A stretch of 32,000 nucleotides of DNA from Promethearchaeum syntrophicum (GTDB lineage Archaea; Asgardarchaeota; Lokiarchaeia; Sigyniarchaeales; Promethearchaeaceae). Shown piece by piece: positions 1 to 29,864 of this stretch. Below the pieces are notes generated by a model. That model worked only from the letters and a program-made list of their open reading frames with translations, was not told the DNA's origin and ran no database searches. The stretch covers positions 2,820,001 through 2,852,000 of the forward strand of contig NZ_CP042905.2 in the NCBI RefSeq assembly GCF_008000775.2. Direction: 5' to 3'. A program made the position numbers and the translations under genes. Position 1 is the first letter of the stretch. Each line of letters starts with the position of its first letter.

Positions 1-135
1 CATCTCTAAATCGCGAAGCAATCCAAGAGGATTAAATAATCCAGTTAAATGGGTTGGGCAACTTAAATTGCATTGTCCACAGTTTTTGCATGCAGAAATA
101 TATTCATTAATTGCCGAATTGAATGTAGTAAGCAT
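1..135 (-). CDS. 5' part of a 4Fe-4S cluster-binding protein (HdrC/GlpC-like Fe-S subunit); runs off the left edge
   Basis: Reverse-strand reading from the ATG at 135..133 gives MLTTFNSAINEYISACKNCGQCNLSCPTHLTGLFNPLGLLRDLEM, which contains a canonical CxxCxxCxxxCP ferredoxin-type motif. The frame stays open to the window edge. It is missing from the ORF track only because it is under 60 aa. Confidence 0.5.
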   Translation of the reverse strand, partial: MLTTFNSAINEYISACKNCGQCNLSCPTHLTGLFNPLGLLRDLEM

Positions 136-391
136 TGTGAAATTAAGTAAAATGGGAATACATAAAGGTTATCCTTGCAAAATCACTGAATTAAATTTAT
201 TTCGTAAAATTTTCCCTAATGAAATCAAAAATCTCTATATAATGAATTATAAATAATTATTCCTAATATATGATGAATTTTACTAAAATGAACAAAATTT
301 CACAAAAACAATAAAAAATCCAAAACCTCTTAAAGGAGATTTTCTTAAAAAAAGTTCGACATAAATTCAATCGAAATCATGATGATTTAAC

Positions 392-1078
392 TTGCTAAAT
401 CGAATAGATCTGAAGGGGTTTAAAAAGGTTCAAGATGAATACAGAAAAGATCGCTCTAAATGTAAGAAAACATTGGAAGTTAAAGGAAGATGGAAATTAG
501 ATGTACAATATGGTCCACAATTTGAGATAAAACTGGCCACAGAAAGAGCAGGGATCATTACTGTACAAACTGATGAAACCATCATCCTTGGAGGAGGAGG
601 AACAGCAGTACACCCAGTTCATTATTGTATGGTCGGTTTTTGTGGTTGCTTCTCAGCAGCATTTGCTAAATGGGCAGCAATGGCAGATATAGAATTAAAA
701 AAATTAGACATTAGAATTATTGCAGACATAGATTTAACAACGGGATTTGGAATTGAGGATGGTATTGATGCTGTTAATGATTATAAACTTGAAATATATA
801 TTGAAAGCGATGCAAGTGAAGATGAATTAAATAAAGTTCTGGAGTACACAAAAAAAAGATGTTTTTGTATGTATTGTATCACGACACCAATAGAACCTAA
901 AATTGAGATGATAATAGAAACACCTGAAGAAGAGATAGAAGATGCCGTCTTTATTTGTCCTAATTGTTTCAAGTATACAATGGTATTTTTAGATGATAAC
1001 ACTCAGAAATGTTCGAATTGCAATACTATTGGCTATTTTACTCGACCACCCGAATCAGAAGAATCATCTAAGAAATAA
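392..1078 (+). CDS. OsmC/Ohr-family (peroxiredoxin-like) domain fused to a C-terminal CxxC...CxxC zinc ribbon
   Basis: The central segment GGGGTAVHPVHYCMVGFCGCFSAAF plus the later KKRCFCMYC is typical of the OsmC fold with its conserved cysteines. The C-terminus CPNCFKY...(16 aa)...CSNCN is a zinc-ribbon pattern. The start is TTG because there is no in-frame ATG upstream of the domain. Confidence 0.7.
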   Translation: MLNRIDLKGFKKVQDEYRKDRSKCKKTLEVKGRWKLDVQYGPQFEIKLATERAGIITVQTDETIILGGGGTAVHPVHYCMVGFCGCFSAAFAKWAAMADIELKKLDIRIIADIDLTTGFGIEDGIDAVNDYKLEIYIESDASEDELNKVLEYTKKRCFCMYCITTPIEPKIEMIIETPEEEIEDAVFICPNCFKYTMVFLDDNTQKCSNCNTIGYFTRPPESEESSKK

Positions 1079-1115
1079 AAAAGCACATTAGAAAGGAGCA
1101 TTATAATATCAAGAA

Positions 1116-1334
1116 GTGAAACAAATGAATGAAGAATGGCCTTATGTAACTAATAAAGATCAATACGTTATGGATTTAGAAAAAGATTTAAAGAAAACTA
1201 AGAATCAATTATATCAGACTTTAATAAATGCAAATAAAACAGTTAACGAAATTCAAGAAGTTCAGGAGAAATTGAATCGATGTCAAATTGAAAATGCAAA
1301 ATTAAAGCATCAAATTGAAGATTTATCTAAATAA
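1116..1334 (+). CDS. Small coiled-coil protein immediately upstream of the Rab-like GTPase
   Basis: 72-aa ORF with a heptad-like charged/hydrophobic pattern (LEKDLKKTKNQLYQTLINANKTVNEIQEVQEKLNRCQIENAKLKHQIEDL). It ends 34 nt upstream of the co-directional GTPase gene. The start is GTG at 1116 or ATG at 1125. Confidence 0.45.
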   Translation: MKQMNEEWPYVTNKDQYVMDLEKDLKKTKNQLYQTLINANKTVNEIQEVQEKLNRCQIENAKLKHQIEDLSK

Positions 1335-1368
1335 TTTTAATTGAAAAAAAAGGCATGGTTTAAACCCA

Positions 1369-1920
1369 ATGAATGATACTCAAATAGATTTTATCTTTAA
1401 AATAACAGTAATTGGAGATAGTGGTGTAGGAAAAACATCGTTAATTAAACAATATACTCAGAGTTCATTTGAAAATGATTATATTTCTACAATTGGGGCC
1501 CAATTTTCTATATATAATGAAGAGATAGATGGGGGTAAATTTAAGTTATTTTTATGGGATATCGCTGGTGAAAAGGATTTTAAATTCCTACGCGCTCAGT
1601 TTTATACAAAAAGTAAAGCCGCAATTATTGTTTATTCTCTCGAGGAAAATGATCATGGAAGAAAAAGCTTCAAGCACATAATTGAATGGTATAAGGATAT
1701 TAAAGAATATTGCGGAGAAATTCCCGTTATCATTTTTGCTAATAAAGTTGATTTAATTGATGAAAGAAATTTCGATGATACGGAGGTACAGAAATTAGTT
1801 AAGGAAAATAACTTTTTAGGAATTTATTATACTTCCGCGAAAACTGGTAAGAAGGTAACTGAAGCTTTCCAATACATAATTAAATTTCTTTATAATCAGG
1901 CTAAGAATAAGATTTATTAA
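1369..1920 (+). CDS. Ras-superfamily small GTPase, Rab-like
   Basis: G1 is GDSGVGKTS. Switch I is YISTIGAQF. G3 is WDIAGE, where Rab/Ras has DTAGQ. G4 is NKVD. G5 is TSAKTG. At 183 aa it is a single G domain with no C-terminal Cys prenylation motif. Confidence 0.9.
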   Translation: MNDTQIDFIFKITVIGDSGVGKTSLIKQYTQSSFENDYISTIGAQFSIYNEEIDGGKFKLFLWDIAGEKDFKFLRAQFYTKSKAAIIVYSLEENDHGRKSFKHIIEWYKDIKEYCGEIPVIIFANKVDLIDERNFDDTEVQKLVKENNFLGIYYTSAKTGKKVTEAFQYIIKFLYNQAKNKIY

Positions 1921-1956
1921 AAAATTTTTACAATAATACAAAGGTTTTGAATTAAA

Positions 1957-2202
1957 TTATCTGAATTGCTTTTTTTTCATCGAGAACAGCAGAATGATTG
2001 CACTTCCTGTTCCTATAATTATGCCGATAATTATTAAATACCATTCTAAATTACTGATTAACCAAAAAAATCTGCCGGAAGTCCCATATCCCATCTCGTA
2101 AGCTATATTTTGTAAATATAATCCTAAAGGGAAAGCTAGACACGACACCAGTATTCCAACACAAAGTCCAATGACGGGAAAAGTCAATTTGCTTTCCATC
2201 AT
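1957..2202 (-). CDS. Small integral membrane protein (two predicted TM helices)
   Basis: 81-aa ORF with two long hydrophobic stretches (FPVIGLCVGILVSCLAFPLGLYL and WYLIIIGIIIGTGSAIILLF). No recognisable family. Confidence 0.45.
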   Translation of the reverse strand: MMESKLTFPVIGLCVGILVSCLAFPLGLYLQNIAYEMGYGTSGRFFWLISNLEWYLIIIGIIIGTGSAIILLFSMKKKQFR

Positions 2203-2555
2203 TTTGTGTCTCCGTTCTTTTTTTTTTAATTTAAATTATTAACAAAATTAGTAATATTAAAACTATGGGATAAATTTGAGAGATTTAATGAAATAAAAGA
2301 AGGAGATATTCTCAGTTTGCATTTTCGCAATATTTGGGATATAACTATTCTGCAACGCATTTCGCCTTATCTTCAGTGTTCGGGATGGGAACTGGAGTTT
2401 TTCGAAACCTATGACCGAGAATAATTAATCAAATATTAGAAGAAATATAAAATTTACGGATTTCCAAAATACTTCAAGGAAAGTATATAAAATTTACGAA
2501 TTTGGGAGCAAAATCAAGCGATATTTCAAAAAGGAGAATATTAATAATTAATTTA

Positions 2556-3060
2556 TTTATCTGATTTCAAAAATCCTAAAACTGGATTAATACAATAAGC
2601 TTCATCAATTACCCACGAATGCTTCTGCTAATCACAAGTTTAAGTATTAAGTTTATAAATTTTAGTTCTCGGATGATTTACATTATTTAAATGAAGTTCT
2701 GCAAGTTATAGGGGTATATAGAATAATAAATCAGATTTATGTTTAGTGGGTATTTGCAGATACCTGAAAAGCTTCTAAATTTCAATTCTTAACATAGATT
2801 GAAAAGGGGTTGGATTCAGTTCCATTCGAGTTTTATGTTTTGTATTTCTTTTCATCCCCCTACCCCCAGATAAAAAAAAATTAAAGTTATCAAAGTGTTG
2901 GAGGAGTACATATGTACATTCAGTTTCAATACTTGCATCATTGAGAAATCAAAATAATCTTGATTAAAATTGGATGATTTTGGGAAATTCCCCTTAATCA
3001 CCATTTTAGGCTAGATACTTGGATAACAAATTTCCTGATACCAAGAACTCTCACGGACTG
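2556..3060 (-). pseudogene. Decayed paralog of the 3' half of the tandem Lrp/AsnC-like regulator gene at 3392..4549
   Basis: Collinear nucleotide similarity to 3400-3900. Shared blocks include tgatttcaaa.atcc.aaaact.gattaat, cttcatcaatta, aataataaatcaga, ggattcagttccatt.gagtttt, tacccccagat and agtttcaatac. No ORF of 60 aa or more exists on either strand across 2203-3391, so the reading frame is broken. Confidence 0.6.
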
Positions 3061-3204
3061 AATAAAAAATTTTTGGTAGATGATGTAATAAATTATTTAG
3101 AAAAAGCTATGTACAACCATCACAAAGCGATAAAATTGTTAAAATCTAAACAGTTAAATGAGAAAAAAAACAAATGTAATCTAATTACATAAAAGTGATT
3201 AAAT

Positions 3205-3315
3205 ATGAAATTAAAATTCTGGTTAATTTTGGGGATATCGTACTTATTATTGATGATGCCTGTGTTATTAGCTGTTGCTGGGAGAGAAGATGGCGGCGGC
3301 GGAGTAATTGATTAA
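3205..3315 (+). CDS. Unannotated 36-aa signal-peptide ORF ending in the EDGGGGV motif
   Basis: The ATG at 3205 to the TAA at 3313-3315 translates to MKLKFWLILGISYLLLMMPVLLAVAGREDGGGGVID. It has a basic N-terminus, a hydrophobic core and a small-residue AVAG site. It then carries the same (E/D)DGGGGV motif as the 4675..5082 repeats, written with the same GC-rich GGC/GGC/GGC codons that are otherwise rare in this AT-rich DNA. Confidence 0.5.
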   Translation: MKLKFWLILGISYLLLMMPVLLAVAGREDGGGGVID

Positions 3316-3391
3316 TAATTTTTTACCATTTTTTTTCTATAATCTTATCTAACGATTCTTAAGCAGGTTAATTGTAAAAAGGCTAATAATC

Positions 3392-4549
3392 CTAATTATT
3401 TTTCAAATCCGATTTCAAAGATCCCAAAACTTGATTAATGTAAAAATCTTCATCAATTATCCAATTTTGTGTTTTTTCATCCCAAGCATCGGCGTTGAGT
3501 AAGTATGTTTGAGTTCGTGGAGAATCGATATAATTAATGTGAAGTTCTTGAAGTTTTGGACGTAAGTAAAATAATAAATCAGACATTTGTGAAGTTGGTA
3601 AATGTAGGTACCAATATAGCTTATATCCATCAATTTTTAAAGTAGATAAAAAAGGAATTGGATTCAGTTCCATTAGAGTTTTTATTTTTTGTAATTCTTT
3701 TTCTTCTCCATACCCCCAGATGAGAAAAGTATTTAGAATATCAAAATTTATTGGGTTGATTATTGCACGATGAGTTTCAATACATTCTTCTTTAACCAAT
3801 TTTAATCGCCTACTAAAGGTTGGGTCCGAAATTTCCCATCCTCGTGTCTTTAGTTTAGCGATCATATCAGAATTTTTTCTTCTGGCATTCCAGGATAATT
3901 CTCCAATAATTGCAATATCTTGTTTTTTTATCCAATTTTTAGCACTCCCAGGTATTTCCAATTGTTTTATTGAATGGTTAGATGTTATAGGTGCAGTTCT
4001 ATTATTTTTTTCAAACCAGTCTTCCCAACTAAAATTCCAACTTAGATATTCAGAGTCCCATGCATCAATTTTTATCGTTGAATATACTGATGGTACTGAA
4101 TATTGTAAAATTTTAAAATCATCAATTTGTCCAAAATTTTTCATTTTTTGGAATAAAGTTCGGATCAAATTATCAGAACCAATAGGATTTGTTAATTGAA
4201 TAAGCATTCCATTTACATCCCCATAAGTCCTATTGTAGAACACAATATATGGATGTTCATCACCTAATTTCTTGATTATTTGAAGTTTTTTTTCAGAGTC
4301 TGCTTTTACTATGACATCTACACGTTGTAACCCTAAATTATAGAGATGCGGAAGGCTTTTTACTTGAAAATATGGTATAGAATTTGGTGGTCCTTCTAAT
4401 TTCTTCACAATTCCGAACACAACAGATTTAGATAAATCAGTCATAGAAGCTAGTTCATCATATGTTGCTAAAGGTTTCTCTTCAAGAGCAATAAGTACCC
4501 GCTTTTCACGTATAGACAATTGACTGATTTTGCTTTTCTTTTGTTCCAC
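3392..4549 (-). CDS. Tandem Lrp/AsnC-like transcriptional regulator (two HTH + RAM-like modules)
   Basis: The N-terminal EKRVLIALEEKPLATYDELASMTDLSKSVVFGIVKKLEG is an AsnC-type wHTH. It is followed by LGLQRVDVIVKADSEKKLQIIKKLGDEHPYIVFYNRTYGDVNGMLIQL, a RAM-like ligand-binding pattern. A second, similar module starts around residue 210. The start is GTG, preceded by GAGGGAG. Confidence 0.7.
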   Translation of the reverse strand: MEQKKSKISQLSIREKRVLIALEEKPLATYDELASMTDLSKSVVFGIVKKLEGPPNSIPYFQVKSLPHLYNLGLQRVDVIVKADSEKKLQIIKKLGDEHPYIVFYNRTYGDVNGMLIQLTNPIGSDNLIRTLFQKMKNFGQIDDFKILQYSVPSVYSTIKIDAWDSEYLSWNFSWEDWFEKNNRTAPITSNHSIKQLEIPGSAKNWIKKQDIAIIGELSWNARRKNSDMIAKLKTRGWEISDPTFSRRLKLVKEECIETHRAIINPINFDILNTFLIWGYGEEKELQKIKTLMELNPIPFLSTLKIDGYKLYWYLHLPTSQMSDLLFYLRPKLQELHINYIDSPRTQTYLLNADAWDEKTQNWIIDEDFYINQVLGSLKSDLKNN

Positions 4550-4674
4550 TTTATCTCCCTCTTCCTTGGTTAAAAAATTACCATATTTTGACTTTCAAAA
4601 AAGATAAAAATTTTTTATTAAATTGTTCATGGACATACATATTTTGTTTATGTTTTTAAAACGAAATTTTAACT

Positions 4675-5082
4675 TTAGATTATGAAATTAGGGACGCCGC
4701 CGCCACCGTCATCTTTCGTTACTGATAAATCAATTTGATTTGGGACGCCACCGCCACCATCATCTTTGAATATTAGGTTAATTAAATTTGGAACGCCACC
4801 GCCACCATCATCTTTGATTATTAGGTTAATTAAATTTGGAACGCCACCGCCACCATCATCTTTGAATAATAGGTTAATTAGATTTGGAACGCCACCGCCA
4901 CCATCATCTTTAAATATCAGGAAAATTAGATTATAAGTTCCATTGACCTCTCTATCTTCTTTTATTGAAGTGTTTGTATTGTCAATATTAATTCCATTTA
5001 TTGATACTACCGTTAAAAAGCTAATTGCTGTGACCAGTGACAGCACTAATACGATTTTTGAAATTTTTTTACTTGATCTCAT
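4675..5082 (-). CDS. Secreted or membrane-anchored protein with five tandem 16-aa DDGGGGVPN repeats
   Basis: MRSSKKISKIVLVLSLVTAISFLTVVS is a signal-peptide-like N-terminus. It is followed by 5 x (KDDGGGGVPNLINLIF) and the protein ends ...KDDGGGGVPNFII. It is co-directional with the regulator gene and 125 nt upstream of it. Confidence 0.75.
   Translation of the reverse strand: MRSSKKISKIVLVLSLVTAISFLTVVSINGINIDNTNTSIKEDREVNGTYNLIFLIFKDDGGGGVPNLINLLFKDDGGGGVPNLINLIIKDDGGGGVPNLINLIFKDDGGGGVPNQIDLSVTKDDGGGGVPNFII
4691..4935 (-). repeat. In-frame tandem DNA repeat, period 48 bp (one 51-bp unit), 5 copies
   Basis: The core gg[ga]acgcc[ag]ccgccacc[ag]tcatcttt starts at 4691, 4742, 4790, 4838 and 4886. 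The inter-core segments (ttaggttaattaaattt) are also near-identical in the middle three units. Confidence 0.9.
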
Positions 5083-5729
5083 TTTTAATACCTATTTATA
5101 TTGGAAAGGTTTAAGTATAAAAATTTTTTGTCGATTTTTTCATTTTTACATTATTGTATTCTTATGAAATATATGATGAAAAATAGAAAATCTAAAAAAT
5201 TTTATGAATAATTAATTTAAAATATCAAAATAATAATAGAATTAGATAGATTAGAGAAAACTACTAAATTTTATTTTATTATCTCGATGAATTTTCAAGA
5301 TTAAATATGAAGGGAAATTCTCGTCATTTAAAAACAAAAAAAACAAAACAAATATTTAAATATTCTATGAGCGTTTTATCATTTAGTTAAACAAAACGAA
5401 GGTCATTTAAGTGAATACTTGGAAAGAAGAGATTTCTTTAAACTTTGGGTATAATTCCCGATTACACGAAAGAACGGAAGCAATCCAAGAATATCTTAAG
5501 TCAATATTTATTGCCGTTACAGAAATTGCAGTTTAATCGGGATTAAAAATAGTATTTCGACTCATGACAAAAATCGACAAAAAAATTTTTTAAATGGAAA
5601 AGCAAATTTGGGAAATTAATCGGGTTAATTATATCTTCAGCTTCAATTGATAGGAATAATTGGGAACAAGGAAAAGAAATTGTTGTTATTTGAAATAAAA
5701 TATAAGATAAAACGGGGTGTGTATTAAGC

Positions 5730-14998: not shown

Positions 14999-15868
14999 AT
15001 GATCAAACATGTGAACATCCTAACCCTTGATGGTAAATCCCTTCTTTTTCGTGAATACGGCGCAACTAAAGTTGATCAAGATTTATTGGCAGGATTCATG
15101 AGTGCATTTAGTGGATTTATGAAAGAAATCTCCCGATCTGAAATAAAATCAACAGTTACAGGTAATTCAAAATTTATTTATAGCTTTACAGATCAGATAA
15201 TGATAGTAATTTGTACAGATATTAAAGATAATGAAGAGGAGATATATCCAATTCTTGAGACAATTTTCTCCCAATTTTTAGAAAAATACAGTGATCTCTT
15301 TAAAAATAATAAATGGGATGGTGAACGGACCATTTTCAAAGAATTCAAAGAGAATGTTGATAAAATCGTGTTAGGACCAATAAAAGTTTCAATTTTAGGA
15401 TACGGTGGTGTTGGAAAAACCACTTTAACCAAACTAATTATCGGGGAAGAAATAAATTTAGAATATGTACCAACAATTACTGCAGATATTGCTACTTTTG
15501 ATAAAATGGGAAAACGCAGTATTGTGTTATGGGATTTTGCGGGCCAAATCCAGTTTACCGATTTATGGGACTCACTTTTAAAAGAAACCAGAATAGTTTT
15601 GTTGGTAACAGATTCATCGTATAAAAACGTTCAAGATACCAAAAAAATCATGGAGAAATTTATTGAAAAGGATTCCAATATGTTAATAATTGGAATAGCA
15701 AATAAACAAGATTTACAAAACAAATTATCAACGAAATTCGTTGAAAAGATTTTGAATGTTCCAACGTTCGGCATGATCGCGATAAATCCGAACTATAGGA
15801 TAATGATTCACGAAATTTTGAACGAATTCATTGAGAAGATTAATAAAATTGATGGATTCATTGATTAA
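14999..15868 (+). CDS. Longin/roadblock-like N-terminal domain fused to a Ras-superfamily small GTPase domain
   Basis: The N-terminus MIKHVNILTLDGKSLLFREYG...LLAGFMSAFSGFMKEIS...IMIVICTD has the alpha/beta regulatory-domain pattern. The G domain has G1 GYGGVGKTT, switch I YVPTITADI, G3 WDFAGQ and G4 NKQD. It is a paralog of 28052..29761. Confidence 0.85.
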   Translation: MIKHVNILTLDGKSLLFREYGATKVDQDLLAGFMSAFSGFMKEISRSEIKSTVTGNSKFIYSFTDQIMIVICTDIKDNEEEIYPILETIFSQFLEKYSDLFKNNKWDGERTIFKEFKENVDKIVLGPIKVSILGYGGVGKTTLTKLIIGEEINLEYVPTITADIATFDKMGKRSIVLWDFAGQIQFTDLWDSLLKETRIVLLVTDSSYKNVQDTKKIMEKFIEKDSNMLIIGIANKQDLQNKLSTKFVEKILNVPTFGMIAINPNYRIMIHEILNEFIEKINKIDGFID

Positions 15869-18920: not shown

Positions 18921-20397
18921 CAGTCTTCAAGGTTATAAACTCGACGACAAAAAACGTCCCTAAGTCTAATCTATGAAAACTATAGAAGATATAAAGGGGA
19001 AAGGAGAATATTTATATGATTATTTATGAATATTGCAAGGAGTCGTTCGATTCCCACATCGAAAACCCTTCCTTTCCCTAAAGATATATTTCTCCTAGGA
19101 GAATTTAAATCTTTGGTTAACAGTTTGGTCACTCGATTAGGAATCGCGAAAAGATTTAAGCCCAGGCTTTATTCATATGCAGATTTTGTGTTTGTTAAAT
19201 TTTATGCTCTAACAACTTCAATACCAATCGAAAGAGCTTCAGAACGCCTTAATAAATGGCTGATATTCCAATATTTCAAGAAATACAAGTTAAAACCAAA
19301 AAATTTTCAAGACGGAGTTCGTAAACGGCGCTTAGTACCACATCAAACCGATGTTGATAAATTTTTCAGATTGTTATCTGAAAAAGAAGTCAATATGTTG
19401 TTCGGAAATCTATTAATGAACGTTGTACTGAAGGTTAAAGCTAGATGTATCGGAGGATCAAAACTCAGATTCTTAGTTGACAACACTGAATATGCATATT
19501 ATGGCAAGCCCAACTCGCTTTTTGAAATTGGAACCAATCGAAAACCAGGAACTCGGTTCTGTCGCATGTTTCAAGGGCATGCACTTCACGGATCTGGAAT
19601 GACATTGTTTACTGATTTCTATTTACTTCAAAAAGGGAAATATCGTTGTCTTAACATCCCTCATTCGGTAGAATGGATAAGGTGGTCGGGAATTAATCTT
19701 TCCTATTCTCTCATGGATAGAGAATTTTACCGCGCCGCCTTAATCAAAGATCTTAAAACCTGTAAACTTCCAGTTCTTATTCCCGCGAAGAAATATCCCG
19801 GAATTAAAAGAAAAATCAAAGATTTCTTGCTCGGAATAGGTCCATTGGTATCAGTTTATCACTTTTCACAAACCCAAAAGGTAAAACCATGGCCGAGTTC
19901 GGTTCATGTGAATTTTGTCGTTATTGGCCATAAAAATGTATTAGCAACCGAAATACGGCGCCAATTCAGACAAGGTATTTTAACGTTCGATGAAGCAATA
20001 AAACAGTTAGCAGGGTTCTTTACAACTCTCAAACCTTGGAAAAATCATTCACGATGGGCTAAATGGCTTTCACGAGCATATAAAAAAAGATGGAATGAAG
20101 AGACGGGGTTCAGTAAGTTGAATGATATTCACAAAAGTTTCCGGAATCATTATCCGAATGTGCAATTATCTCAGCTCTATATGAGAGCAATAATTTATAA
20201 CAATTGGCAATATTTCAAAAGAGAAGCAGAAAAATCAGGAATTAAAGCCTCAAAGAGAACTTTAGCTGTGTTTTTAGAGATATTAGAATGGAGGATCTAT
20301 AATCTAATTGAACAATCAGTGAGTTATAATTTAAAATATTTACAGAAAAAAAGAAGGAGGTTATATTTTGAAAGTTAATTTATAACCTTAAAGACTG
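18921..20397 (+). mobile_element. Complete insertion sequence (IS4/IS5-superfamily DDE transposase), 1477 bp
   Basis: The 19-bp terminal inverted repeats are cagtcttcaaggttataaa (18921-18939) and tttataaccttaaagactg (20379-20397), matching 18 of 19 as reverse complements. They bracket a single transposase ORF. A flanking direct repeat aaaagaa occurs at 18914-18920 and 20398-20404. Confidence 0.8.
19026..20378 (+). CDS. DDE transposase (IS4/IS5-like, DDE_Tnp_1 type)
   Basis: The candidate catalytic triad context is LRFLVDNTEYAYYG (D), SLMDREFYRAAL (D) and YKKRWNEETGFSKL (the Y-x2-R-x3-E signature of IS4-type enzymes). Confidence 0.8.
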   Translation: MNIARSRSIPTSKTLPFPKDIFLLGEFKSLVNSLVTRLGIAKRFKPRLYSYADFVFVKFYALTTSIPIERASERLNKWLIFQYFKKYKLKPKNFQDGVRKRRLVPHQTDVDKFFRLLSEKEVNMLFGNLLMNVVLKVKARCIGGSKLRFLVDNTEYAYYGKPNSLFEIGTNRKPGTRFCRMFQGHALHGSGMTLFTDFYLLQKGKYRCLNIPHSVEWIRWSGINLSYSLMDREFYRAALIKDLKTCKLPVLIPAKKYPGIKRKIKDFLLGIGPLVSVYHFSQTQKVKPWPSSVHVNFVVIGHKNVLATEIRRQFRQGILTFDEAIKQLAGFFTTLKPWKNHSRWAKWLSRAYKKRWNEETGFSKLNDIHKSFRNHYPNVQLSQLYMRAIIYNNWQYFKREAEKSGIKASKRTLAVFLEILEWRIYNLIEQSVSYNLKYLQKKRRRLYFES

Positions 20398-20411: not shown

Positions 20412-21434
20412 TTATGCCTTTGATCGGGGATCAAGGGCATCTCGTAGTCCATCCCCTAATAACATAAATCCTAATACGGCTAGCATAACCATAAATCCTG
20501 GCCAGATTGCAGCCCATGGGGCATCCATTAATTTAATTCTGTTAGTATTGATGTCAGCACCCCATTCAACTAACCCAGAGGGTCCAAAGCCAAGAAAAGA
20601 TAAAGCAGCAAAACCAAGAATAGTTCCTCCTAAATCAAAGGTCACCGAAATAATTATCGGAGTCATAGCGTTAGGTAAAATATGTCGAAACATCACTCTA
20701 CCTGGTTTAGCACCAGACACTAATGCCGCTTCAACATATATCTTTTCCTTTTCCTGTAAAACTGAACTGCGAACTAACCTAGAATAAAAGGGTATGCCTA
20801 AAATTCCGAAGACATACATAATCATTTCAATATCTTGTTGCCCAAATGAGGCAATTATCAAAATTAACAAAATTAAGCTTGGAAATGCCATAATAATATC
20901 TGCTGCCCGCATTATTATGGAATCCGTTATTCCTCCGGTATATGCGGAGAATACTCCAATAATTACTCCAATTGTTACACTTATTACAATAGCTCCTAAT
21001 CCAAGCGTCAATGATACCCTTCCTCCCCACATTAATCTTCCAAATACATCCTGACCGAATTCTGTCGTGCCTAAAATGTGTTGCGCATCTGGGGGTTGAT
21101 ATTCTGATCGAGTCATATCAATACCCTGAAGTTCTGTCATTGTATATGGCGAGAGCCAAGCGGCAAAAACTGCAAAAGTAACAATTGCTACTAGTATTAT
21201 TATTCCCACATAAGTTAAAGGAGATTTAATTCTTCGTAATAAACTTCGTTTACTCTTATATTTGTTCAAAACAAACTTTCGTAACTTCAACGTTTCATCA
21301 ATTTCATTTCTTTTAAACAGATATTTTAAATAATGTGGAGTAATTAACTCGCTAAATTGATTTTCAAACGTTAATTCTTTTTCTAAATCAATAGATTCAG
21401 CCTTTTCTATTTCTGCGTATGTAATTTCACTCAT
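20412..21434 (-). CDS. ABC peptide/nickel transporter permease, OppC/DppC-like
   Basis: It has multiple TM helices and the EAA-loop region YVEAALVSGAKPGRVMFRHILPNAMTPIII, which is typical of binding-protein-dependent transport permeases. The N-terminal extension before TM1 matches OppC-type subunits. Confidence 0.88.
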   Translation of the reverse strand: MSEITYAEIEKAESIDLEKELTFENQFSELITPHYLKYLFKRNEIDETLKLRKFVLNKYKSKRSLLRRIKSPLTYVGIIILVAIVTFAVFAAWLSPYTMTELQGIDMTRSEYQPPDAQHILGTTEFGQDVFGRLMWGGRVSLTLGLGAIVISVTIGVIIGVFSAYTGGITDSIIMRAADIIMAFPSLILLILIIASFGQQDIEMIMYVFGILGIPFYSRLVRSSVLQEKEKIYVEAALVSGAKPGRVMFRHILPNAMTPIIISVTFDLGGTILGFAALSFLGFGPSGLVEWGADINTNRIKLMDAPWAAIWPGFMVMLAVLGFMLLGDGLRDALDPRSKA

Positions 21435-21458
21435 AATAATTCATCTTCCTTGTTCATT

Positions 21459-22475
21459 TTAATATCTAATTCGTGGGTCCATTATCCCATAGAGAATATC
21501 GCTAACTAAATTAGCGGTCATAAAGATTCCAGTGGTTAATAGTACGAGAGCATTAATTACAAAATAATCCCGATTTTGTATTGCACCAATCATTAGACTC
21601 CCAAAACCATCAAGGGCAAATGTGGTTTCTGTAAGCACTGCACCACCTAATAATCCCCCTATTCTAATCCCAATTATTGTAATTGTGGGGATCATGGCGT
21701 TTTTCAAAGCGTGTTTATTAATTACATCCTTTTCTTTACATCCCTTTGCTCTTGCTGATCGAATATAATCTAATTCTAAAACTTCAAGCATACTTGATCG
21801 AGTTTGACGAGTAATTGAAGCTAAACCGACAAAAGCTAAACAAAATACAGGTAAAATCATATGCCAGATTATATCCAATAAAATATCGAATCTCCCCATA
21901 AGTATCGAATCTATCGTATGGAACCCAGTTACTTTAATAAGTGCTATATTATAATATGGGGAAATTCCATGGATAGTTGGAAAGAGGCTAAGTTCTAATG
22001 CAAAAAGATATTTCAATACCATCCCTAACCAGAATATTGGAATTGATACACCAAGAAGAGCAATAAAACGTACAATAGTGTCTTTTGGGTTGTTTTTATT
22101 GACTGAAGAAAATACTCCCGCTCTAATTCCAATACTTATTGCAAAAATTTGTGAAAGTACTGCGAGTTCGATTGTTAAAGGGGCTTTTTGCCAGATATAA
22201 GTCCATACTGGAATTCCCTCTGCTAAAGATATTGAATTCCCCCAGTCTCCTTGCAGTATTCTACCTAAATACATCCAAAGTTGAATGTATATGGGTTCAT
22301 TTAACCCAAGTGCATCTTCAGCAATTCCTGCTGTTACATAATTTATCTTCGTTCCCTCTTGGTTAAAAGGACTCCCAGGTAATTGTAAAGATAATACAAA
22401 TGTGAGCAGTAACACTCCAATTAAAATTGGAATCATTGCTAAAATTCTTCTTGTTACATAACTTATTAAACTCAT
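21459..22475 (-). CDS. ABC peptide/nickel transporter permease, OppB/DppB-like
   Basis: The N-terminus SYVTRRILAMIPILIGVLLLTFVL is typical, and the EAA-loop is DYIRSARAKGCKEKDVINKHALKNAMIPTITI. Confidence 0.88.
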   Translation of the reverse strand: MSLISYVTRRILAMIPILIGVLLLTFVLSLQLPGSPFNQEGTKINYVTAGIAEDALGLNEPIYIQLWMYLGRILQGDWGNSISLAEGIPVWTYIWQKAPLTIELAVLSQIFAISIGIRAGVFSSVNKNNPKDTIVRFIALLGVSIPIFWLGMVLKYLFALELSLFPTIHGISPYYNIALIKVTGFHTIDSILMGRFDILLDIIWHMILPVFCLAFVGLASITRQTRSSMLEVLELDYIRSARAKGCKEKDVINKHALKNAMIPTITIIGIRIGGLLGGAVLTETTFALDGFGSLMIGAIQNRDYFVINALVLLTTGIFMTANLVSDILYGIMDPRIRY

Positions 22476-22975: not shown

Positions 22976-24012
22976 TTTAATCGCGTAAATCCGTTAATAT
23001 AATTTTAAGACAATTTTTATTCCTATAAAAAATTATGTAAACAAAAAAAATAGATTAAGCAAATCCTCATTTGATTATAAAAATATTTATATATTATTTT
23101 ATATTTAAAAATACTCATTATTGAAAGACATTATACGCGCTATTTTAATTTTAAAATAACCTTTTGTCTTTTTTCTTGACTTTGTCATTAATCTGTTAAT
23201 TTGACTATTCAAATTTTGTACAATTCCGCCTTTTAGTTTATTAAATTGATGGATAGGAAACACTAATTAAAGGATGTGACCTATGGAGATACGATTAGTC
23301 ATCAAATTAAGAGATAATGAAATTTTTCATTTTTTTAGAATCGTTCGAAATACTTATTATCAATATCGAAAATTTCTTTCGATCTCGGAATAGGATAAAA
23401 ACTTCAAGGAGAGAGTTGATCAAGTTCTTAAATTATTGAAATATCCTGCAGTTCTTAAGGTTAAATGGTTCAAGGCACCTGTTTAAAAATCGTCTTTCAC
23501 ATTAAAAAGACAGAATTCAGGGTGAGAAAATATAAAAAATATTTATTTCATATTCGATATTTTCATTCTGAGAAATTTCAAAAAATGATTTATTGGAGAA
23601 TGTTTGGGTATGTTTTGGGATCTTATTTTAATGAACAAAATTATCATTAATAAAAGCATACAAAATTACTATCACTACCAAGAAATATGGATTGAAATTA
23701 TAGATTGTGTATCTCTAAGATTTTAATACTACATTTTAGTTTTTGTTTTACTTAATCAATGCTATTTCGGTCCATATTAGAATTCATAACCATCCATCTA
23801 GTCTGATTAGTTTTTTCATTTGGCAAATCAAAAAATTCATGATTTTTGCTTGAAAAAAAAAATCTTGATGTTTTCAAAGTAAGAACCCTTTTATAAACCT
23901 TCAATCATATTAATAAAAATTTTGAAAATATTTATTAACTAGGTTGATTAAGATTTTATTACCCGATATAAAAAAAAGCGTTTTAATTTATAAAAGGGTA
24001 AAGGTAATAAAA

Positions 24013-25794
24013 ATGAAAAAATCTAAAGTTATAATATCCGTAATTGTGATGTTATCCCTTATGTCTATTTATATACCAAATGTAATGGCTGAAGAAGAAG
24101 ATTCTAAATTCATGCCTTTTACAGTTGGTGTTTCGGATACTCCACAAAATGTTGATCCTGCAAATGCTTATGATAGTGTATCATATGATACATTAAACCA
24201 AGTATATGAAGGATTATACACCTATAACCTTTCTTCTCCTGCAATGGAATCTATTCCGTTGTTGGCTAAAGAAATGGGAAACTGGTCAGCAGATAATTTG
24301 AATTTAACCATTGCTCTTCGAGAAGATGTACTTTTCCATGATAATACTACATTTAATGCAACAGATGTCAAATGGAATTTCGATCGAATTTTCTACTTTG
24401 CCGAAGAACAAAGGAGTGATCCATATACTTTGTATTATAATGGAGAAAAATGGGGCGATGGTACTCCACAACTAATTGTTAATGAAACAATAATTGTAGA
24501 TGAATTTACAATCAAGTTCGTCTTAAATAAAGCATTCGGAATTTGGGATAAAATGTTAGCTTTCACCGGCTCCAGTATAATTAAACCAAATCCTGCATTT
24601 GAAAAAGAATTCTTGACCCTCAGTGATCCAGCAGTCGGAACTGGTCCATTTAAATTAACAGCAGTAGAACCAGACCAATATGTTACAATGGAGAAATTTG
24701 ATGATTATTATAGTGGTCCTGCAAACATTTCTAAAATTTATTACTCAGTAATTAAAGATGGTGAAGTTGCTTCCACAGCAATGTTGAACCATGAATTACA
24801 TTATGGTGGAGTTTTGGCAGAACATTTAGCCGAAGCAGAAGCAGATCCTGATATTACCATTGAACGAGTAAAAACCACTGTTGTATTTTATTTACAATTG
24901 GGGTATCACACACTCCCTCATGCAGTACGTAAAGCAATGCAATTTGGATGGAACTATACTTACTACCTTGAAGAAACCCTCCAAGGTGAAGCTTATGAAT
25001 TACACACACCAATTCCAGATGGAATGGAATTTTACAATCCGGATATTGAAGGATTACCTTATTATAATAAAACAATGGCTCGACAATTCTTGATTGATGA
25101 CCAAAGTGAATTAGAAAACCCTGTCCCTGCTGGTTTGACCGCAACTAGTCCAGATTCAGAATGGGAAGCAGTCGCTACTGGAGATAATCCTCTATTTACA
25201 TCTAACTTCACTCGATATACCTCAACCGGTCTTGAAAAAATTAAGACACAATTAATCGACAACTATGCAGACATTGGTATTAAAGTAGTAGATTGGCATA
25301 TTGGTGATTGGGGTACTTGGACAGAATGGAGTCAAACACCTGGAAACAAAGCTTTATTAGATATTTCAATGGGTGGGTGGGGTCCTGATTATAATGACGC
25401 CATTAACATGATTGAACCTATCTTCAAAACAAATGCAACCTACAATACTGCTCAAATTAATGAAACAGATCTCGATGATTTGATGGACGCAAATTTTGGA
25501 ATAACTGATACAGCTCTACGTCAAGCATCATTCGATGAAATTGTTACTAAACTTATTGTTGATTATGCCCCATGTTTCTATATTTACCAACGTGGTGGAC
25601 GTGAAGTCTATAACAATAAATATGTGAGCAATATCCAAGATATGTTAAACGTATTTGACAACACATATTGGTATAATGTAGAATATATCCCACAACCTGT
25701 TCCTGGAATTCCTGGATTCACTTTAGGATATATGTTAATTGCATGTTTAGGTGCAGTTTCTTTAGTCATTTTTGCCGTAAAGAAACGACATTAA
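24013..25794 (+). CDS. ABC transporter substrate-binding protein, family 5 (OppA/DppA-like), with signal peptide and C-terminal TM anchor
   Basis: NVDPANAYDSVSYDTLNQVYEGLYTY...LLAKEMGNWSADNLNLTIALREDVLFHDNTTFNATDVKWNF matches the SBP_bac_5 pattern. The N-terminal signal is MKKSKVIISVIVMLSLMSIY. The C-terminus is GFTLGYMLIACLGAVSLVIFAVKKRH. Many N-x-S/T sequons are present. The ATG at 24013 is preferred over the TTG at 23944. Confidence 0.88.
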   Translation: MKKSKVIISVIVMLSLMSIYIPNVMAEEEDSKFMPFTVGVSDTPQNVDPANAYDSVSYDTLNQVYEGLYTYNLSSPAMESIPLLAKEMGNWSADNLNLTIALREDVLFHDNTTFNATDVKWNFDRIFYFAEEQRSDPYTLYYNGEKWGDGTPQLIVNETIIVDEFTIKFVLNKAFGIWDKMLAFTGSSIIKPNPAFEKEFLTLSDPAVGTGPFKLTAVEPDQYVTMEKFDDYYSGPANISKIYYSVIKDGEVASTAMLNHELHYGGVLAEHLAEAEADPDITIERVKTTVVFYLQLGYHTLPHAVRKAMQFGWNYTYYLEETLQGEAYELHTPIPDGMEFYNPDIEGLPYYNKTMARQFLIDDQSELENPVPAGLTATSPDSEWEAVATGDNPLFTSNFTRYTSTGLEKIKTQLIDNYADIGIKVVDWHIGDWGTWTEWSQTPGNKALLDISMGGWGPDYNDAINMIEPIFKTNATYNTAQINETDLDDLMDANFGITDTALRQASFDEIVTKLIVDYAPCFYIYQRGGREVYNNKYVSNIQDMLNVFDNTYWYNVEYIPQPVPGIPGFTLGYMLIACLGAVSLVIFAVKKRH

Positions 25795-28051: not shown

Positions 28052-29761
28052 TTATTTTATCTCTTTGAGTTCATCCAATTGATTTTCTAACCGAACTTTA
28101 ACAGAATTAAGGCGTTTAGTTTTTTCATCAAAAATTTCATCCGTTATTTCTCCTGTGATATTCTGCATTTCCAAATCAAGCAAGTTCTTGTTGACATTGG
28201 CAATCTTGATTTTTAAATCGGTTCTGACATTTTCCGCTGAAATAGGTGATTCTGATGATGTTGCTTGCGTTTTTTCTAATATTGGTTTTTCAGAAACTTT
28301 TGGATTTGACAAAGCATGAGTCTCGACTTTAGGGGTCTTGCTAGGTAATATTGATTTGGATACACCTACAGATGTTTGTGAAGCAGGGCTATTTGATTTG
28401 TTTGTTTTGGTTTGTAACTTCTTTAGCATTAATCCCAGTTGATCTAACTCTTGATTCGGAGGTGCGGGAGGTTTTTGAACTGGAGGTGTAGAAGGTTGTG
28501 GACCTGGAGGCATAGAAGGTTGTTGAACAGGTGGTTTAGTAGGTTGCTGAACGGGAGGCATAGGAGGTTGTTGAACAGGTGGTTTAGGAGGTTGTTGAAC
28601 AGGTGGTTTAGTAGGTTGCTGAACGGGAGGCATAGGAGGTTGTTCAACTGGAGGCATGGGAGGGGATTGAGCTGACGGCATAGGAGGTGCTTGTACAACA
28701 GGTTGTGAAACAGCAGGTTGAGATTTCTTTAAAATATTCCGAATCTTCTGAGCTTTCTCATGAAAATCTTGACTCACGCGATCATCCCCCAAATCTAAGC
28801 TCAAATCTGCAAGTTCTTCAAATATTGACATAGCTAATTCAAAATTACCATTTTCTAACGCTTCTTCAGCTTCAAGCATTTTTTTATCCCGATCAATTAA
28901 TGGTTTGAGGAGAGGTGAGATTTCACCCGACATCTCTAAAATATCACCGAGAATTGTTATCATTTTATCCCTATTTCCAGGATCTGTTGCAATCATAGAA
29001 TAACATTTCATGCTTAAATGACGCTCGATATCGATGATTGGCATCGCATCAGGTAAATCTTGTTTATTTCCAATAACTGCCGTATGAGCCATGGGAGCTT
29101 CTTTCTTAACTAATTCGATAAAATATTTACTTTTCTCACAATTTTCCAGGGTTGAATCTGTAATTAGGAGAACTGCATCAGATCCTTTAATAAAATTATT
29201 CCAGAGAAAACTAAACTGTTCTTGACCAGCAAAATCCCAAAGATGGAAATGTAATTTTCCAATTTTAATAGTTCCAATGTCTCCTGTAATTGTAGGAATA
29301 TGTTCTATAGGAATATCCTCTGCTGTGATAAGTCGTGTAATAGTTGTCTTCCCTACACCAGAGAAACCAATCAAAGAAATTTTAGGTCGCAAGTTTTTGT
29401 GGATTAATTCAATTGTTGGATCAAAAACTTCAAAGGTATCTTCATCCAGTTTTTCATCAAGTATCTCACCAAACATATCCATAAATTCCTTGCGACATTT
29501 CTGGAGTTCTTTTTTAACGCTATTAAATTTGTCGGAAAGGTCAGAAACAAAGAAGAAAATGGTGTTTTTGTTAGGAACTGAAAGATAAGTTATGCGATAT
29601 TTAAAATAGTCATGGTATTGGATACTTTCTGTAGTCAAATTGGAAGCTTCTTTCGAGATGTGTTTTAAAACTTGCTCGAATGCCTCTTCATCTAGAGCTT
29701 TTCCAAATTCACGATTATAAATGGATTCTCCATCAAGAGTTATAAAGACTTGTCGTAGCAT
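28052..29761 (-). CDS. Multidomain small GTPase: longin/roadblock-like domain, Ras-like G domain, helical region, proline-rich octapeptide repeats, C-terminal coiled coil
   Basis: MLRQVFITLDGESIYNREFG parallels the N-terminus of 14999..15868. G1 is GFSGVGKTT, switch I is HIPTITGDI, G3 is WDFAGQ and G4 is GNKQD. About ten PPxPPVQQ repeats follow, and then LLDLEMQNITGEITDEIFDEKTKRLNSVKVRLENQLDELKEIK. The ATG at 29761 is preferred over the TTG at 29776. Confidence 0.85.
   Translation of the reverse strand: MLRQVFITLDGESIYNREFGKALDEEAFEQVLKHISKEASNLTTESIQYHDYFKYRITYLSVPNKNTIFFFVSDLSDKFNSVKKELQKCRKEFMDMFGEILDEKLDEDTFEVFDPTIELIHKNLRPKISLIGFSGVGKTTITRLITAEDIPIEHIPTITGDIGTIKIGKLHFHLWDFAGQEQFSFLWNNFIKGSDAVLLITDSTLENCEKSKYFIELVKKEAPMAHTAVIGNKQDLPDAMPIIDIERHLSMKCYSMIATDPGNRDKMITILGDILEMSGEISPLLKPLIDRDKKMLEAEEALENGNFELAMSIFEELADLSLDLGDDRVSQDFHEKAQKIRNILKKSQPAVSQPVVQAPPMPSAQSPPMPPVEQPPMPPVQQPTKPPVQQPPKPPVQQPPMPPVQQPTKPPVQQPSMPPGPQPSTPPVQKPPAPPNQELDQLGLMLKKLQTKTNKSNSPASQTSVGVSKSILPSKTPKVETHALSNPKVSEKPILEKTQATSSESPISAENVRTDLKIKIANVNKNLLDLEMQNITGEITDEIFDEKTKRLNSVKVRLENQLDELKEIK
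28457..28723 (-). repeat. In-frame 24-bp (octapeptide PPxPPVQQ) tandem repeat region containing a 72-bp near-perfect internal duplication
   Basis: aggttgttgaacaggtggtttagtaggttgctgaacgggaggcataggaggttgtt occurs at 28517-28572 and again at 28589-28644 (offset 72 bp). The whole region is built from ggagg/ggtgg-ttg units and is locally GC-rich. Confidence 0.85.
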
Positions 29762-29864
29762 TAATGATTTCCTCAAAATTTGTTTATTGTAGCAAAATTT
29801 CTATAATAAATACATGTTTAGTTATCCTAAAAAATTTGAGATAATAACATTAGTTTGGAATTTT

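Follow-up and report, generated by a model that had tools for sequence, protein, structure and literature searches.

A Lokiarchaeial gene pair that joins a predicted exported oligoglycine-motif protein to a tandem Lrp-like regulator

This report concerns two adjacent genes on a 32,000-nucleotide stretch of the genome of Promethearchaeum syntrophicum MK-D1 (NZ_CP042905.2, positions 2,820,001 to 2,852,000, approximately 30% G+C; hereafter the window). Very few relatives of the archaeal ancestor of eukaryotes have been cultured, and MK-D1 is among them. The first gene (4675..5082, minus strand) encodes a 135-residue protein with predicted export and five KDDGGGGVPN units. The second gene (3392..4549, minus strand) lies 125 nt downstream, is co-directional, starts with GTG, and encodes a 385-residue regulator with two Lrp/AsnC-like modules. 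The open reading frames (ORFs) agree with this layout, which was first pointed out in a first-pass annotation made from the letters of the window. We found that a motif-bearing gene stands directly upstream of, and co-directional with, a member of this regulator family in all 15 loci that could be evaluated. This pairing is robust and undescribed, and neither partner belongs to a described family. As a tentative interpretation, which we prefer but do not hold with confidence, we read the pair as a two-gene cassette specific to Lokiarchaeia that consists of an exported multi-copy peptide precursor and a regulator.

The 135-residue protein begins with MRSSKKISKIVLVLSLVTAISFLTVVSING... and comprises an N-terminal signal or anchor (residues 1–29), a variable stretch of approximately 28 residues, and five tandem units. 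Each unit opens with KDDGGGGVPN and continues with a hydrophobic spacer (LINLLF, LINLII, LINLIF, QIDLSVT, and FII). The corresponding DNA array (4738..4932) repeats every 48 nt over 4.1 copies, at 93% matches. When the window is translated in all six frames, the sequence GGGG appears seven times, compared to 0.02 occurrences expected from 200 shuffles. Six of the seven fall into the repeat-protein ORF and a second, 36-residue ORF (3205..3315, plus strand; MKLKFWLILGISYLLLMMPVLLAVAGREDGGGGVID) that ends with REDGGGGVID, as the first-pass annotation had it. Therefore, the motif shared by the two proteins is not a product of chance. The exact sequences of both proteins are missing from a collection of 15 billion proteins that does hold neighboring MK-D1 proteins, so that both genes appear to be without annotation or to be annotated with different boundaries. 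An exhaustive phmmer search against 1.84 billion representatives, with the repeat protein as the query, returned only Promethearchaeum-like relatives, the other matches being unrelated low-complexity repeats. Pfam and NCBIfam hold no family for the repeat protein, the 36-residue protein, or five of the six distant partners described below (for the sixth, L010, the search covered Pfam only). Two related proteins have unusual architectures: P0044 (293 residues) carries the 36-residue N-terminus of the repeat protein on an unrelated body, and in P0034, this N-terminus and one unit are fused to the C-terminal portion of a response regulator. Domain shuffling, deletion, or assembly chimeras could explain both proteins.

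The first-pass annotation had named four outcomes that would refute its proposal, among them a lack of conserved adjacency; the analysis covered three of these (adjacency, signal, and fold of the repeat protein), and none of the three spoke against the proposal. The 15 of 15 loci that show this arrangement contain regulators that span 37–86% identity (67–86% in the Promethearchaeum clade and 37–46% for distant paralogs). This count leaves out locus L005, which starts inside the spacer between the two genes, and L016, whose contig derives from a separate set of public reads (Logan DRR199588; 98.1% identical to positions 1..4800 of the window) and breaks inside the repeat array. By a heuristic used in place of SignalP, every partner carries a positively charged N-terminus and an uncharged hydrophobic stretch of 13–22 residues with small residues as candidate signal-peptidase sites. 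A signal-like N-terminus, as the first-pass annotation called for, is thus found throughout. An acidic oligoglycine-(V/I/L/M)P motif at or near the C-terminus is the only feature that is common to very different partners. A literature search yielded no description of a motif gene paired with such a regulator, as the first-pass annotation had surmised.

The motif occurs as 1–9 tandem units in Promethearchaeum, at the C-terminus of 64–65-residue proteins, and as the tail of 165–178-residue domain proteins. The tandem type includes four copies of KDDGGGGIPTVIILA in L001, three copies of KDDGGGGVIDLIIQG in L002, a single KDDGGGGDPNVIIQSNNIF in a 73-residue protein in L003, six copies of KDDGGGGVIDLILQG in L008, and seven copies of KDDGAGGYPSLIDLLVL in L009. 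L006 and L007 encode eight and nine copies of LREDGGNGVID, respectively. Two copies of REGGGSGGEPSFIIYL are found in P0033, which entered the comparison as a protein without its locus. The gene in L004 ends with ...GGGGGLPGQIIQ and is cut by the contig end, which makes its copy number not evaluable. Units in this clade begin with [KR][DE][DG]GGxG and are 11–17 residues long, with variation in length due to the spacer only. They are homogenized within each gene and differ between relatives. The short partners are a 65-residue protein in L013, which ends with ...EKTVIPGGGIPGG and thereby with PGGGIPGG, and a 64-residue protein in L014, which ends with ...DKVTGGGGGLP. The predicted secreted domain proteins from L010, L011, L012, and L015 terminate with ...DKSGSSIFGMVRY, ...EVGGAGLPFAIVLY, ...ESDDGGMPRVEAAVAD, and ...PEGGMPTASFTIK, respectively; endings of this type include DGGLPFAIVLF, DDGGMPRVEAAVAD, and EGGMPTASFTIK. 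Two close relatives of the L011 protein, P0051 and P0052, end with ...REYRDGGLPFAIVLF and ...AIVMF. The four domain proteins share a conserved domain that lies outside Pfam coverage, and a sequence-profile search of this family against the Protein Data Bank (PDB) returned only noise. Judged from these sequences, the Promethearchaeum form looks like a protein that has lost its body and multiplied its tail.

The protein encoded by the second gene is labeled as a "MarR family transcriptional regulator" at NCBI (QEE17239.1, 100% identical). An AlphaFold2 (AF2) model based on an alignment of 18 sequences (predicted local distance difference test, pLDDT, 87.8; predicted template modeling score, pTM, 0.84) contains two successive units, each with three helices followed by a β-α-β-β-α-β fold. 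The first winged helix-turn-helix (wHTH1, residues 13–52) and RAM-like domain (approximately 61–157) are followed by a Trp-rich linker (164–179), a disordered join (188–199), wHTH2 (209–256), and a second RAM-like domain (257–348). Foldseek aligned each half with many Lrp/AsnC structures, including PH0061 (E 1.1e-5) and more than 20 other chains. The best match to the full-length model was the siroheme decarboxylase NirDL (4ch7; E 4.7e-10, template modeling scores 0.47/0.55, 11–12% identity). These data bear out the initial description of the regulator as a double helix-turn-helix plus RAM protein. Pfam recognizes only HTH_24 (residues 13–52, E 4.8e-7, 29.7 bits against a cutoff of 21.9); its RAM model, AsnC_trans_reg, is unmatched, and the RAM-like fold is seen by structure. 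A profile search against PDB sequences returned only DNA-binding proteins, namely PH0061 (residues 11–147, E 0.004) and the DNA-binding domain of ArgR (209–253, E 0.003), and neither NirDL nor AhbAB. Since the two halves have no significant sequence similarity to each other (hhalign, E 0.15), the internal duplication rests on fold. The second recognition helix is basic and nearly invariant (T244, S246, R247, L249, and K250). Based on the fold, the HTH_24 match, the DNA-binding proteins found by profile, and the conserved second recognition helix, we treat this protein as a tandem Lrp-like transcription factor and consider an enzymatic role to be a minor rival. The linker region contains an aromatic cluster (W164, W171, F173, W175, W178, F179, and W206) that is invariant across 18 family members and could form a binding surface or an inter-module core. 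A DAWD...W element at the C-terminus resembles this cluster. The family comprises 29 detected members, and those with a named source are from Promethearchaeota, Lokiarchaeum, or Asgard archaea, except for one bin labeled Zixibacteria.

Alignment of the 150 nt that precede seven orthologous peptide genes revealed conserved elements upstream of the repeat gene, all on the minus strand. These are a Shine-Dalgarno-like TAAATAGGTA (5089..5097), an A-run with TTTTTATACTTA that resembles a B-recognition element and TATA box (5112..5125), and a further conserved block (5156..5172). Conservation and position suggest that these elements may act as a promoter. Neither a scan for sigma-70 promoters and terminators nor a search of the rest of the window for the conserved upstream block returned anything above chance. 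The 125-nt spacer between the two genes (4550..4674) contains T-runs, a second promoter-like element with an A-run and TTTTTATC (4603..4616), and a conserved Shine-Dalgarno-like GAAGAGGGAG (4555..4564) before the GTG start of the regulator gene, again on the minus strand. The sequence GAGGGAG at this position is kept in L002, L003, and L008. In orthologous loci, this spacer measures 65–125 nt. For L009, the listed value of 7 nt results from an annotated start that extends too far, as tblastn puts residue 1 of the regulator at L009 position 3604, approximately 97 nt past the peptide gene. Lrp-type regulators commonly control adjacent genes, and the cassette may likewise be regulated by the factor that it encodes. 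Farther upstream, a perfect 14-bp palindrome (AATATTTAAATATT, 5351..5364) lies within a block that is near-identical among the aligned Promethearchaeum loci. It stands just ahead of a divergent small gene, which encodes a 56-residue protein in L003 (2587..2757) and is interrupted in MK-D1 (MSVLSFS and a stop codon at 5367..5390, followed by an ORF at 5411..5536).

The first-pass annotation had regarded the 36-residue ORF, together with a decayed regulator paralog at 2556–3060, as a second copy of the same module. Both elements exist, but they do not repeat the first pair. The 36-residue ORF converges with the regulator gene from the opposite strand and is preceded by a Shine-Dalgarno-like GTGAT. 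Its product consists of MKLK, a 22-residue hydrophobic stretch that ends with AVAG, and the sequence REDGGGGVID. It is thus a single-unit relative of the motif, and its signal sequence bears no relation to the one in the repeat protein. The orthologous ORF of L009 (5170..5280) lies beyond a 5S rRNA gene and runs in the same direction as the regulator gene. The two proteins share 24 of 26 signal residues, and the first 26 codons differ by 10 synonymous and 2 nonsynonymous changes, whereas the C-terminal 10 residues have diverged from REDGGGGVID (MK-D1) to KDDGGGANPF (L009). This pattern argues that the ORF is a real coding gene under purifying selection with a conserved signal and a fast-evolving tail.

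The decayed paralog (2559..2963, minus strand) corresponds to the 3′ third of a regulator gene (equivalent residues 246–381) with six in-frame stops and 46% identity to the intact protein (tblastn, E 2e-27). Homology ends at 2963, short of the proposed boundary, and similarity to the regulator is not detectable between 2964 and 3060. Directly downstream of the regulator locus is a lone 5S rRNA gene (2307..2422, minus strand; Rfam RF00001, 54.4 bits), which also accounts for a 35-residue "ORF" that is identical in the window (2317..2424) and L003. Those Promethearchaeum-clade contigs among L001–L009 that reach past the stop codon of the regulator contain its 3′ end, a short spacer, and a 5S gene. 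The MK-D1 pseudogene, spacer, and 5S gene are collinear with these loci at 74–79% nucleotide identity, compared to 72% identity between the pseudogene and the intact MK-D1 copy. Therefore, the fragment is what remains of the original 3′ end of the gene, still at its ancestral position, and by this comparison a rearrangement or replacement has placed the intact regulator gene and the 36-residue ORF upstream of it. Instead of a "duplicated module", we prefer to see here the remnant of a rearrangement and, independent of it, a small gene. In a neighbor-joining tree, the pseudogene forms a long branch nearest to the L006 regulator (70.9% compared to 66–69%), and the peptide units of L006 (REDGGNGVID) resemble the tail of the 36-residue protein. 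Since the tree does not resolve the position of the pseudogene, its kinship to the "VID" peptide type of the 36-residue ORF is only a hint. Contig L016 does not differ from the window in OsmC, the 5S gene, or the repeat gene, and differs by 4–6.5% in the genes for a Ras-type GTPase (1369..1920) and an 81-residue membrane protein (1957..2202) and by 16% in 3316..3391. This mosaic suggests recombination between strains.

How might such a cassette work? According to the precursor interpretation, the first gene would encode a small exported protein with the acidic oligoglycine-(V/I/L/M)P motif as the conserved functional element, and the second gene would encode a cytoplasmic tandem Lrp/AsnC-like DNA-binding protein. 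The N-terminal hydrophobic segment would send the first protein through Sec, and the array would be cut outside the cell at the boundaries between hydrophobic spacers and Lys or Arg to release peptides of 9–17 residues. The 36-residue gene would provide one 10-mer directly, following cleavage by signal peptidase between AVAG and RE. The regulator would bind the conserved promoter region and set the expression of the cassette according to a small ligand that sits between the two RAM-like domains. The export and cleavage steps are inferred, as are the binding of the regulator to local DNA and a role in signaling.

Several properties of the repeat proteins are consistent with this proposal. The predicted signal-peptidase site in the 36-residue protein (AVAG followed by REDGGGGVID) coincides exactly with the start of the unit, which supports Lys or Arg as the unit boundary. 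A mature part of 10 residues, as in this protein, or a single unit cannot be a folded structural protein, and yet the 36-residue gene is under purifying selection. The AF2 model of the repeat protein, built on an alignment of five sequences only, has a pLDDT of 43 and a pTM of 0.22. Its sole helix spans residues 5–29; five short strands are all below pLDDT 50, as are residues 29–135 as a whole. A confident structural-repeat fold, named in the first-pass annotation as an outcome that would speak against a peptide precursor, is thus absent from the model. Taken together, the short mature part, the change in length through the spacer only, the homogenized units, and the lack of a confident fold beyond the N-terminal helix favor an exported precursor whose units, or whose motif at the least, function as short peptides over a folded structural repeat.

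Other observations weigh against this interpretation. The nine Promethearchaeum-clade loci (the window, L001–L004, and L006–L009) have no conserved protease or modification enzyme, and peptidase genes of the S8, C14, and weakly C13-like kinds lie near L010, L011, and L015 only. Each unit boundary consists of a single Lys or Arg followed by Asp or Glu, which is not a recognized processing site. The hydrophobic segment of the Promethearchaeum proteins measures 19–22 residues and could equally be an uncleaved membrane anchor. The structural argument depends on the shallow alignment mentioned above, and in the domain-type partners the tail that follows GG(L/M)P may be the last β-strand of the fold. 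A search for a variable "pherotype" or ligand-binding region in the regulator found none: conservation is even, and nothing tracks the variable residues of the peptides. Both peptide ORFs are seemingly not in the annotation used for MK-D1 proteomics. Finally, the 36-residue ORF starts with ACG instead of ATG in the near-identical strain L016, so that this gene may be decaying there.

Given the missing conserved protease and the anchor-length segment, an unprocessed surface protein, although doubtful in its own right, is nearly as likely as a precursor. The first protein would then consist of a type II anchor and a flexible acidic Gly-rich tail of variable length, and the Lrp-like factor would merely regulate it. 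Such a tail could, for example, bind cations, contact a syntrophic partner, or modulate a membrane sensor. The hydrophobic stretch of 19–22 residues has high hydropathy and is long for a cleaved signal, the copy number differs between strains as in contingency-type surface proteins, and AF2 predicts disorder. Genes for histidine kinases or response regulators stand near many loci, but such two-component genes are probably common in these genomes. This explanation fits less well with the 36-residue and 64–65-residue proteins, which would display a tail of only 10–35 residues. Furthermore, hydrophobic spacers such as LINLIF and VIILA would have to face the solvent, and conservation is focused on one short motif rather than on the length or composition of the tail.

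If the precursor interpretation is extended to its boldest form, the cassette would be the first peptide-based cell–cell signaling system in Archaea. A Sec-exported polyprotein would be cut to acidic oligoglycine peptides of 9–17 residues and complemented by a 10-mer from the 36-residue gene. These peptides would be sensed either by the regulator after import or by nearby sensor kinases, and unit sequence and copy number would diversify from strain to strain like pherotypes. A signaling interpretation of the cassette is plausible and unproven, and we consider this full version to be improbable.

A special case of the precursor interpretation, slightly more improbable still, is a closed loop of the RRNPP or arbitrium type, in which the DGGGG peptides would be re-imported through an Opp permease and bind to the RAM-like domains or the Trp-rich linker of the regulator. 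The arrangement of a short exported pro-peptide gene beside a cytoplasmic regulator gene, with the presumed mature part at the C-terminus, is as expected for such a loop, and the invariant aromatic cluster of the linker offers a conceivable binding site. On the other hand, the receptor fold is not of the TPR type. RAM domains are sensors of amino acids and small ligands, and no region of the regulator varies with the peptide. Several loci instead encode sensor kinases, which would fit extracellular sensing. The first-pass annotation had also called on an Opp-type importer in the window. This importer exists, but the argument is largely unsupported. The permease genes (20412..22475) and the gene for an SBP_bac_5 oligopeptide-binding protein (23944..25794, plus strand; QEE17258.1, probable true start Met24) are 15–19 kb away from the cassette, beyond unrelated genes and a transposase gene, and the related loci, with flanks of at most 3–6 kb, yielded no call for either SBP_bac_5 or BPD_transp_1. 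The link between Opp and the cassette is therefore weak. At its C-terminus, the binding protein carries an archaeosortase signal of the PGF-CTERM-like type (...IPGFTLGYMLIACLGAVSLVIFAVKKRH). Counting of accessions identifies this protein as DSAG12_03090, which has been reported as the most abundant and the main N-glycosylated protein of MK-D1, with a link to oligopeptide transport or chemoreception (PMC11284389). This abundance is a point in favor of the closed loop.

We regard it as quite unlikely that the repeat protein is the subunit of a self-assembling β-strand polymer or functional amyloid. As in curli CsgA, a hydrophobic strand and a turn rich in Gly would make up each unit, and polymerization of the domain-type relatives would proceed via their C-terminal strand. 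Indeed, AF2 places short strands on every hydrophobic spacer, these spacers are rich in Asn, Ile, and Leu, variation in repeat number is typical of amyloid subunits, and many partners end in an aromatic or hydrophobic residue. However, the model contains no confident solenoid, with the five-sequence alignment noted above, the units of L006 (REDGGNGVIDL) leave almost no spacer to form a strand, some versions consist of a single unit or of 10 residues, and no accessory secretion genes are conserved.

Even less can be said for the idea that the 385-residue protein is an enzyme or chaperone with an Lrp fold, similar to NirDL or AhbAB, from a pathway unrelated to the upstream gene. NirDL is a known example of two fused Lrp-like modules and the best full-length structural match. 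Against this very unlikely assignment stand the low identity of this match, the exclusively DNA-binding proteins retrieved by profile search, the HTH_24 match above threshold, the basic and conserved second recognition helix, and a window devoid of haem-pathway genes. Finally, a regulatory leader peptide that senses the supply of glycyl-tRNA through its runs of Gly codons, and so controls the downstream regulator, is hardly credible: conservation does peak at a run of four to five Gly codons, in an ORF directly before an Lrp-type gene, but all partners carry a conserved signal or anchor, some are domain proteins of 165–178 residues, and the 65–125-nt spacers contain their own promoter-like element. 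Alternative RNA hairpins were not seen either, although no search was aimed at them.

Elsewhere in the window, a DDE_Tnp_1 transposase gene (19026..20378, plus strand) from an insertion sequence element separates metabolic genes from the Opp permease genes. Three genes for small GTPases of the Ras/Arf/Roc type (1369..1920, 14999..15868, and 28052..29776) occur within these 32 kb, two of them with N- or C-terminal extensions. This is a typical picture for the eukaryotic-signature proteins of Asgard archaea. Among the related loci, most have genes for histidine kinases, response regulators, or methyl-accepting chemotaxis proteins nearby. Next to distant cassettes are genes for predicted secreted peptidases (L010 5490..9134, L011 1..1850, and L015 1025..2086); these include S8 subtilisin-like proteins with Big_7 repeats, C14 caspase-like proteins, and a weak match to C13 or caspase-like peptidases.

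To our knowledge, no peptide signaling system has been described in Archaea, and our literature search did not find one. If the interpretation is true, an Asgard archaeon would thus provide the first case, with a peptide precursor of the polyprotein type that resembles the logic of eukaryotic pro-hormones. Even on the most ordinary reading, the cassette represents a new, Lokiarchaeia-restricted gene pair, in which a tandem Lrp-like factor is combined with an exported protein that bears an oligoglycine-proline motif. The two MK-D1 peptide genes are probably unannotated, and searches of existing transcriptome and proteome data have therefore probably never included them.

Comparison with known systems places the cassette outside established classes. 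Inspection of the repeat proteins led us to reject RTX-type calcium repeats (wrong spacing), PGF-CTERM or GlyGly-CTERM sorting signals (no C-terminal transmembrane segment with a basic tail), a lipobox (no Cys), and a class III pilin signal (no cleavage motif of Lys or Arg followed by Gly or Ala). Multi-core precursors of ribosomally synthesized and post-translationally modified peptides (RiPPs), such as the cyanobactin precursor PatE, also combine a conserved N-terminus with repeated short cores that vary between relatives. Here, the N-terminus is Sec-like instead of a cytoplasmic leader, and Pfam detected no RiPP tailoring enzyme, dedicated protease, or exporter by the cassette in the window, L001, L002, or L006–L009. 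The RRNPP and arbitrium systems (Rap-Phr, NprR-NprX, PlcR-PapR, PrgX, and AimR-AimP) also pair a small exported pro-peptide gene with an adjoining cytoplasmic regulator gene and place the presumed active part at the C-terminus. We found a putative exported pro-peptide gene, by heuristic signal prediction, adjoining the presumed receptor gene in 15 of 15 evaluable loci, and the 36-residue ORF has the size and layout of a Phr or AimP precursor. In contrast to RRNPP systems, the host is an archaeon, the partners can be arrays or domain proteins, and no linked Opp genes were found. Membership fails because AF2 and Foldseek assign Lrp/AsnC-like modules only, with no TPR match, to the presumed receptor, just as missing tailoring enzymes set the cassette apart from RiPPs.

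The yeast α-factor precursor (MF-alpha1) comes close in architecture. Like this precursor, the repeat proteins have a signal, a variable pro-region, and near-identical tandem units of varying number, and each unit of the Promethearchaeum arrays opens with a basic and then an acidic residue. The two precursors are not homologous, and the cassette has neither a receptor of the eukaryotic kind nor dibasic Kex2-type sites with a kexin-type protease, for which reason it does not belong to the α-factor type. S8 subtilisin-family genes occur near only two paralogs from Lokiarchaeum ossiferum (L010 and L011), and not in MK-D1. For the regulator, NirDL and AhbA-AhbB provide a structural parallel as a fusion or pair of two Lrp-like modules, the former being the best full-length match, although at 11–12% identity, without a sequence match and outside a haem context. 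The regulator differs from typical Lrp/AsnC proteins in that two modules with a Trp-rich linker are joined in one chain of 385 residues, instead of a single module of approximately 150 residues that forms dimers or octamers, and in that the MK-D1 family is restricted to Lokiarchaeia. Both halves nevertheless combine an N-terminal wHTH with a domain that has the fold of a RAM effector domain, as do PH0061 and PH1519/FL11 from Pyrococcus and Lrp and AsnC from E. coli.

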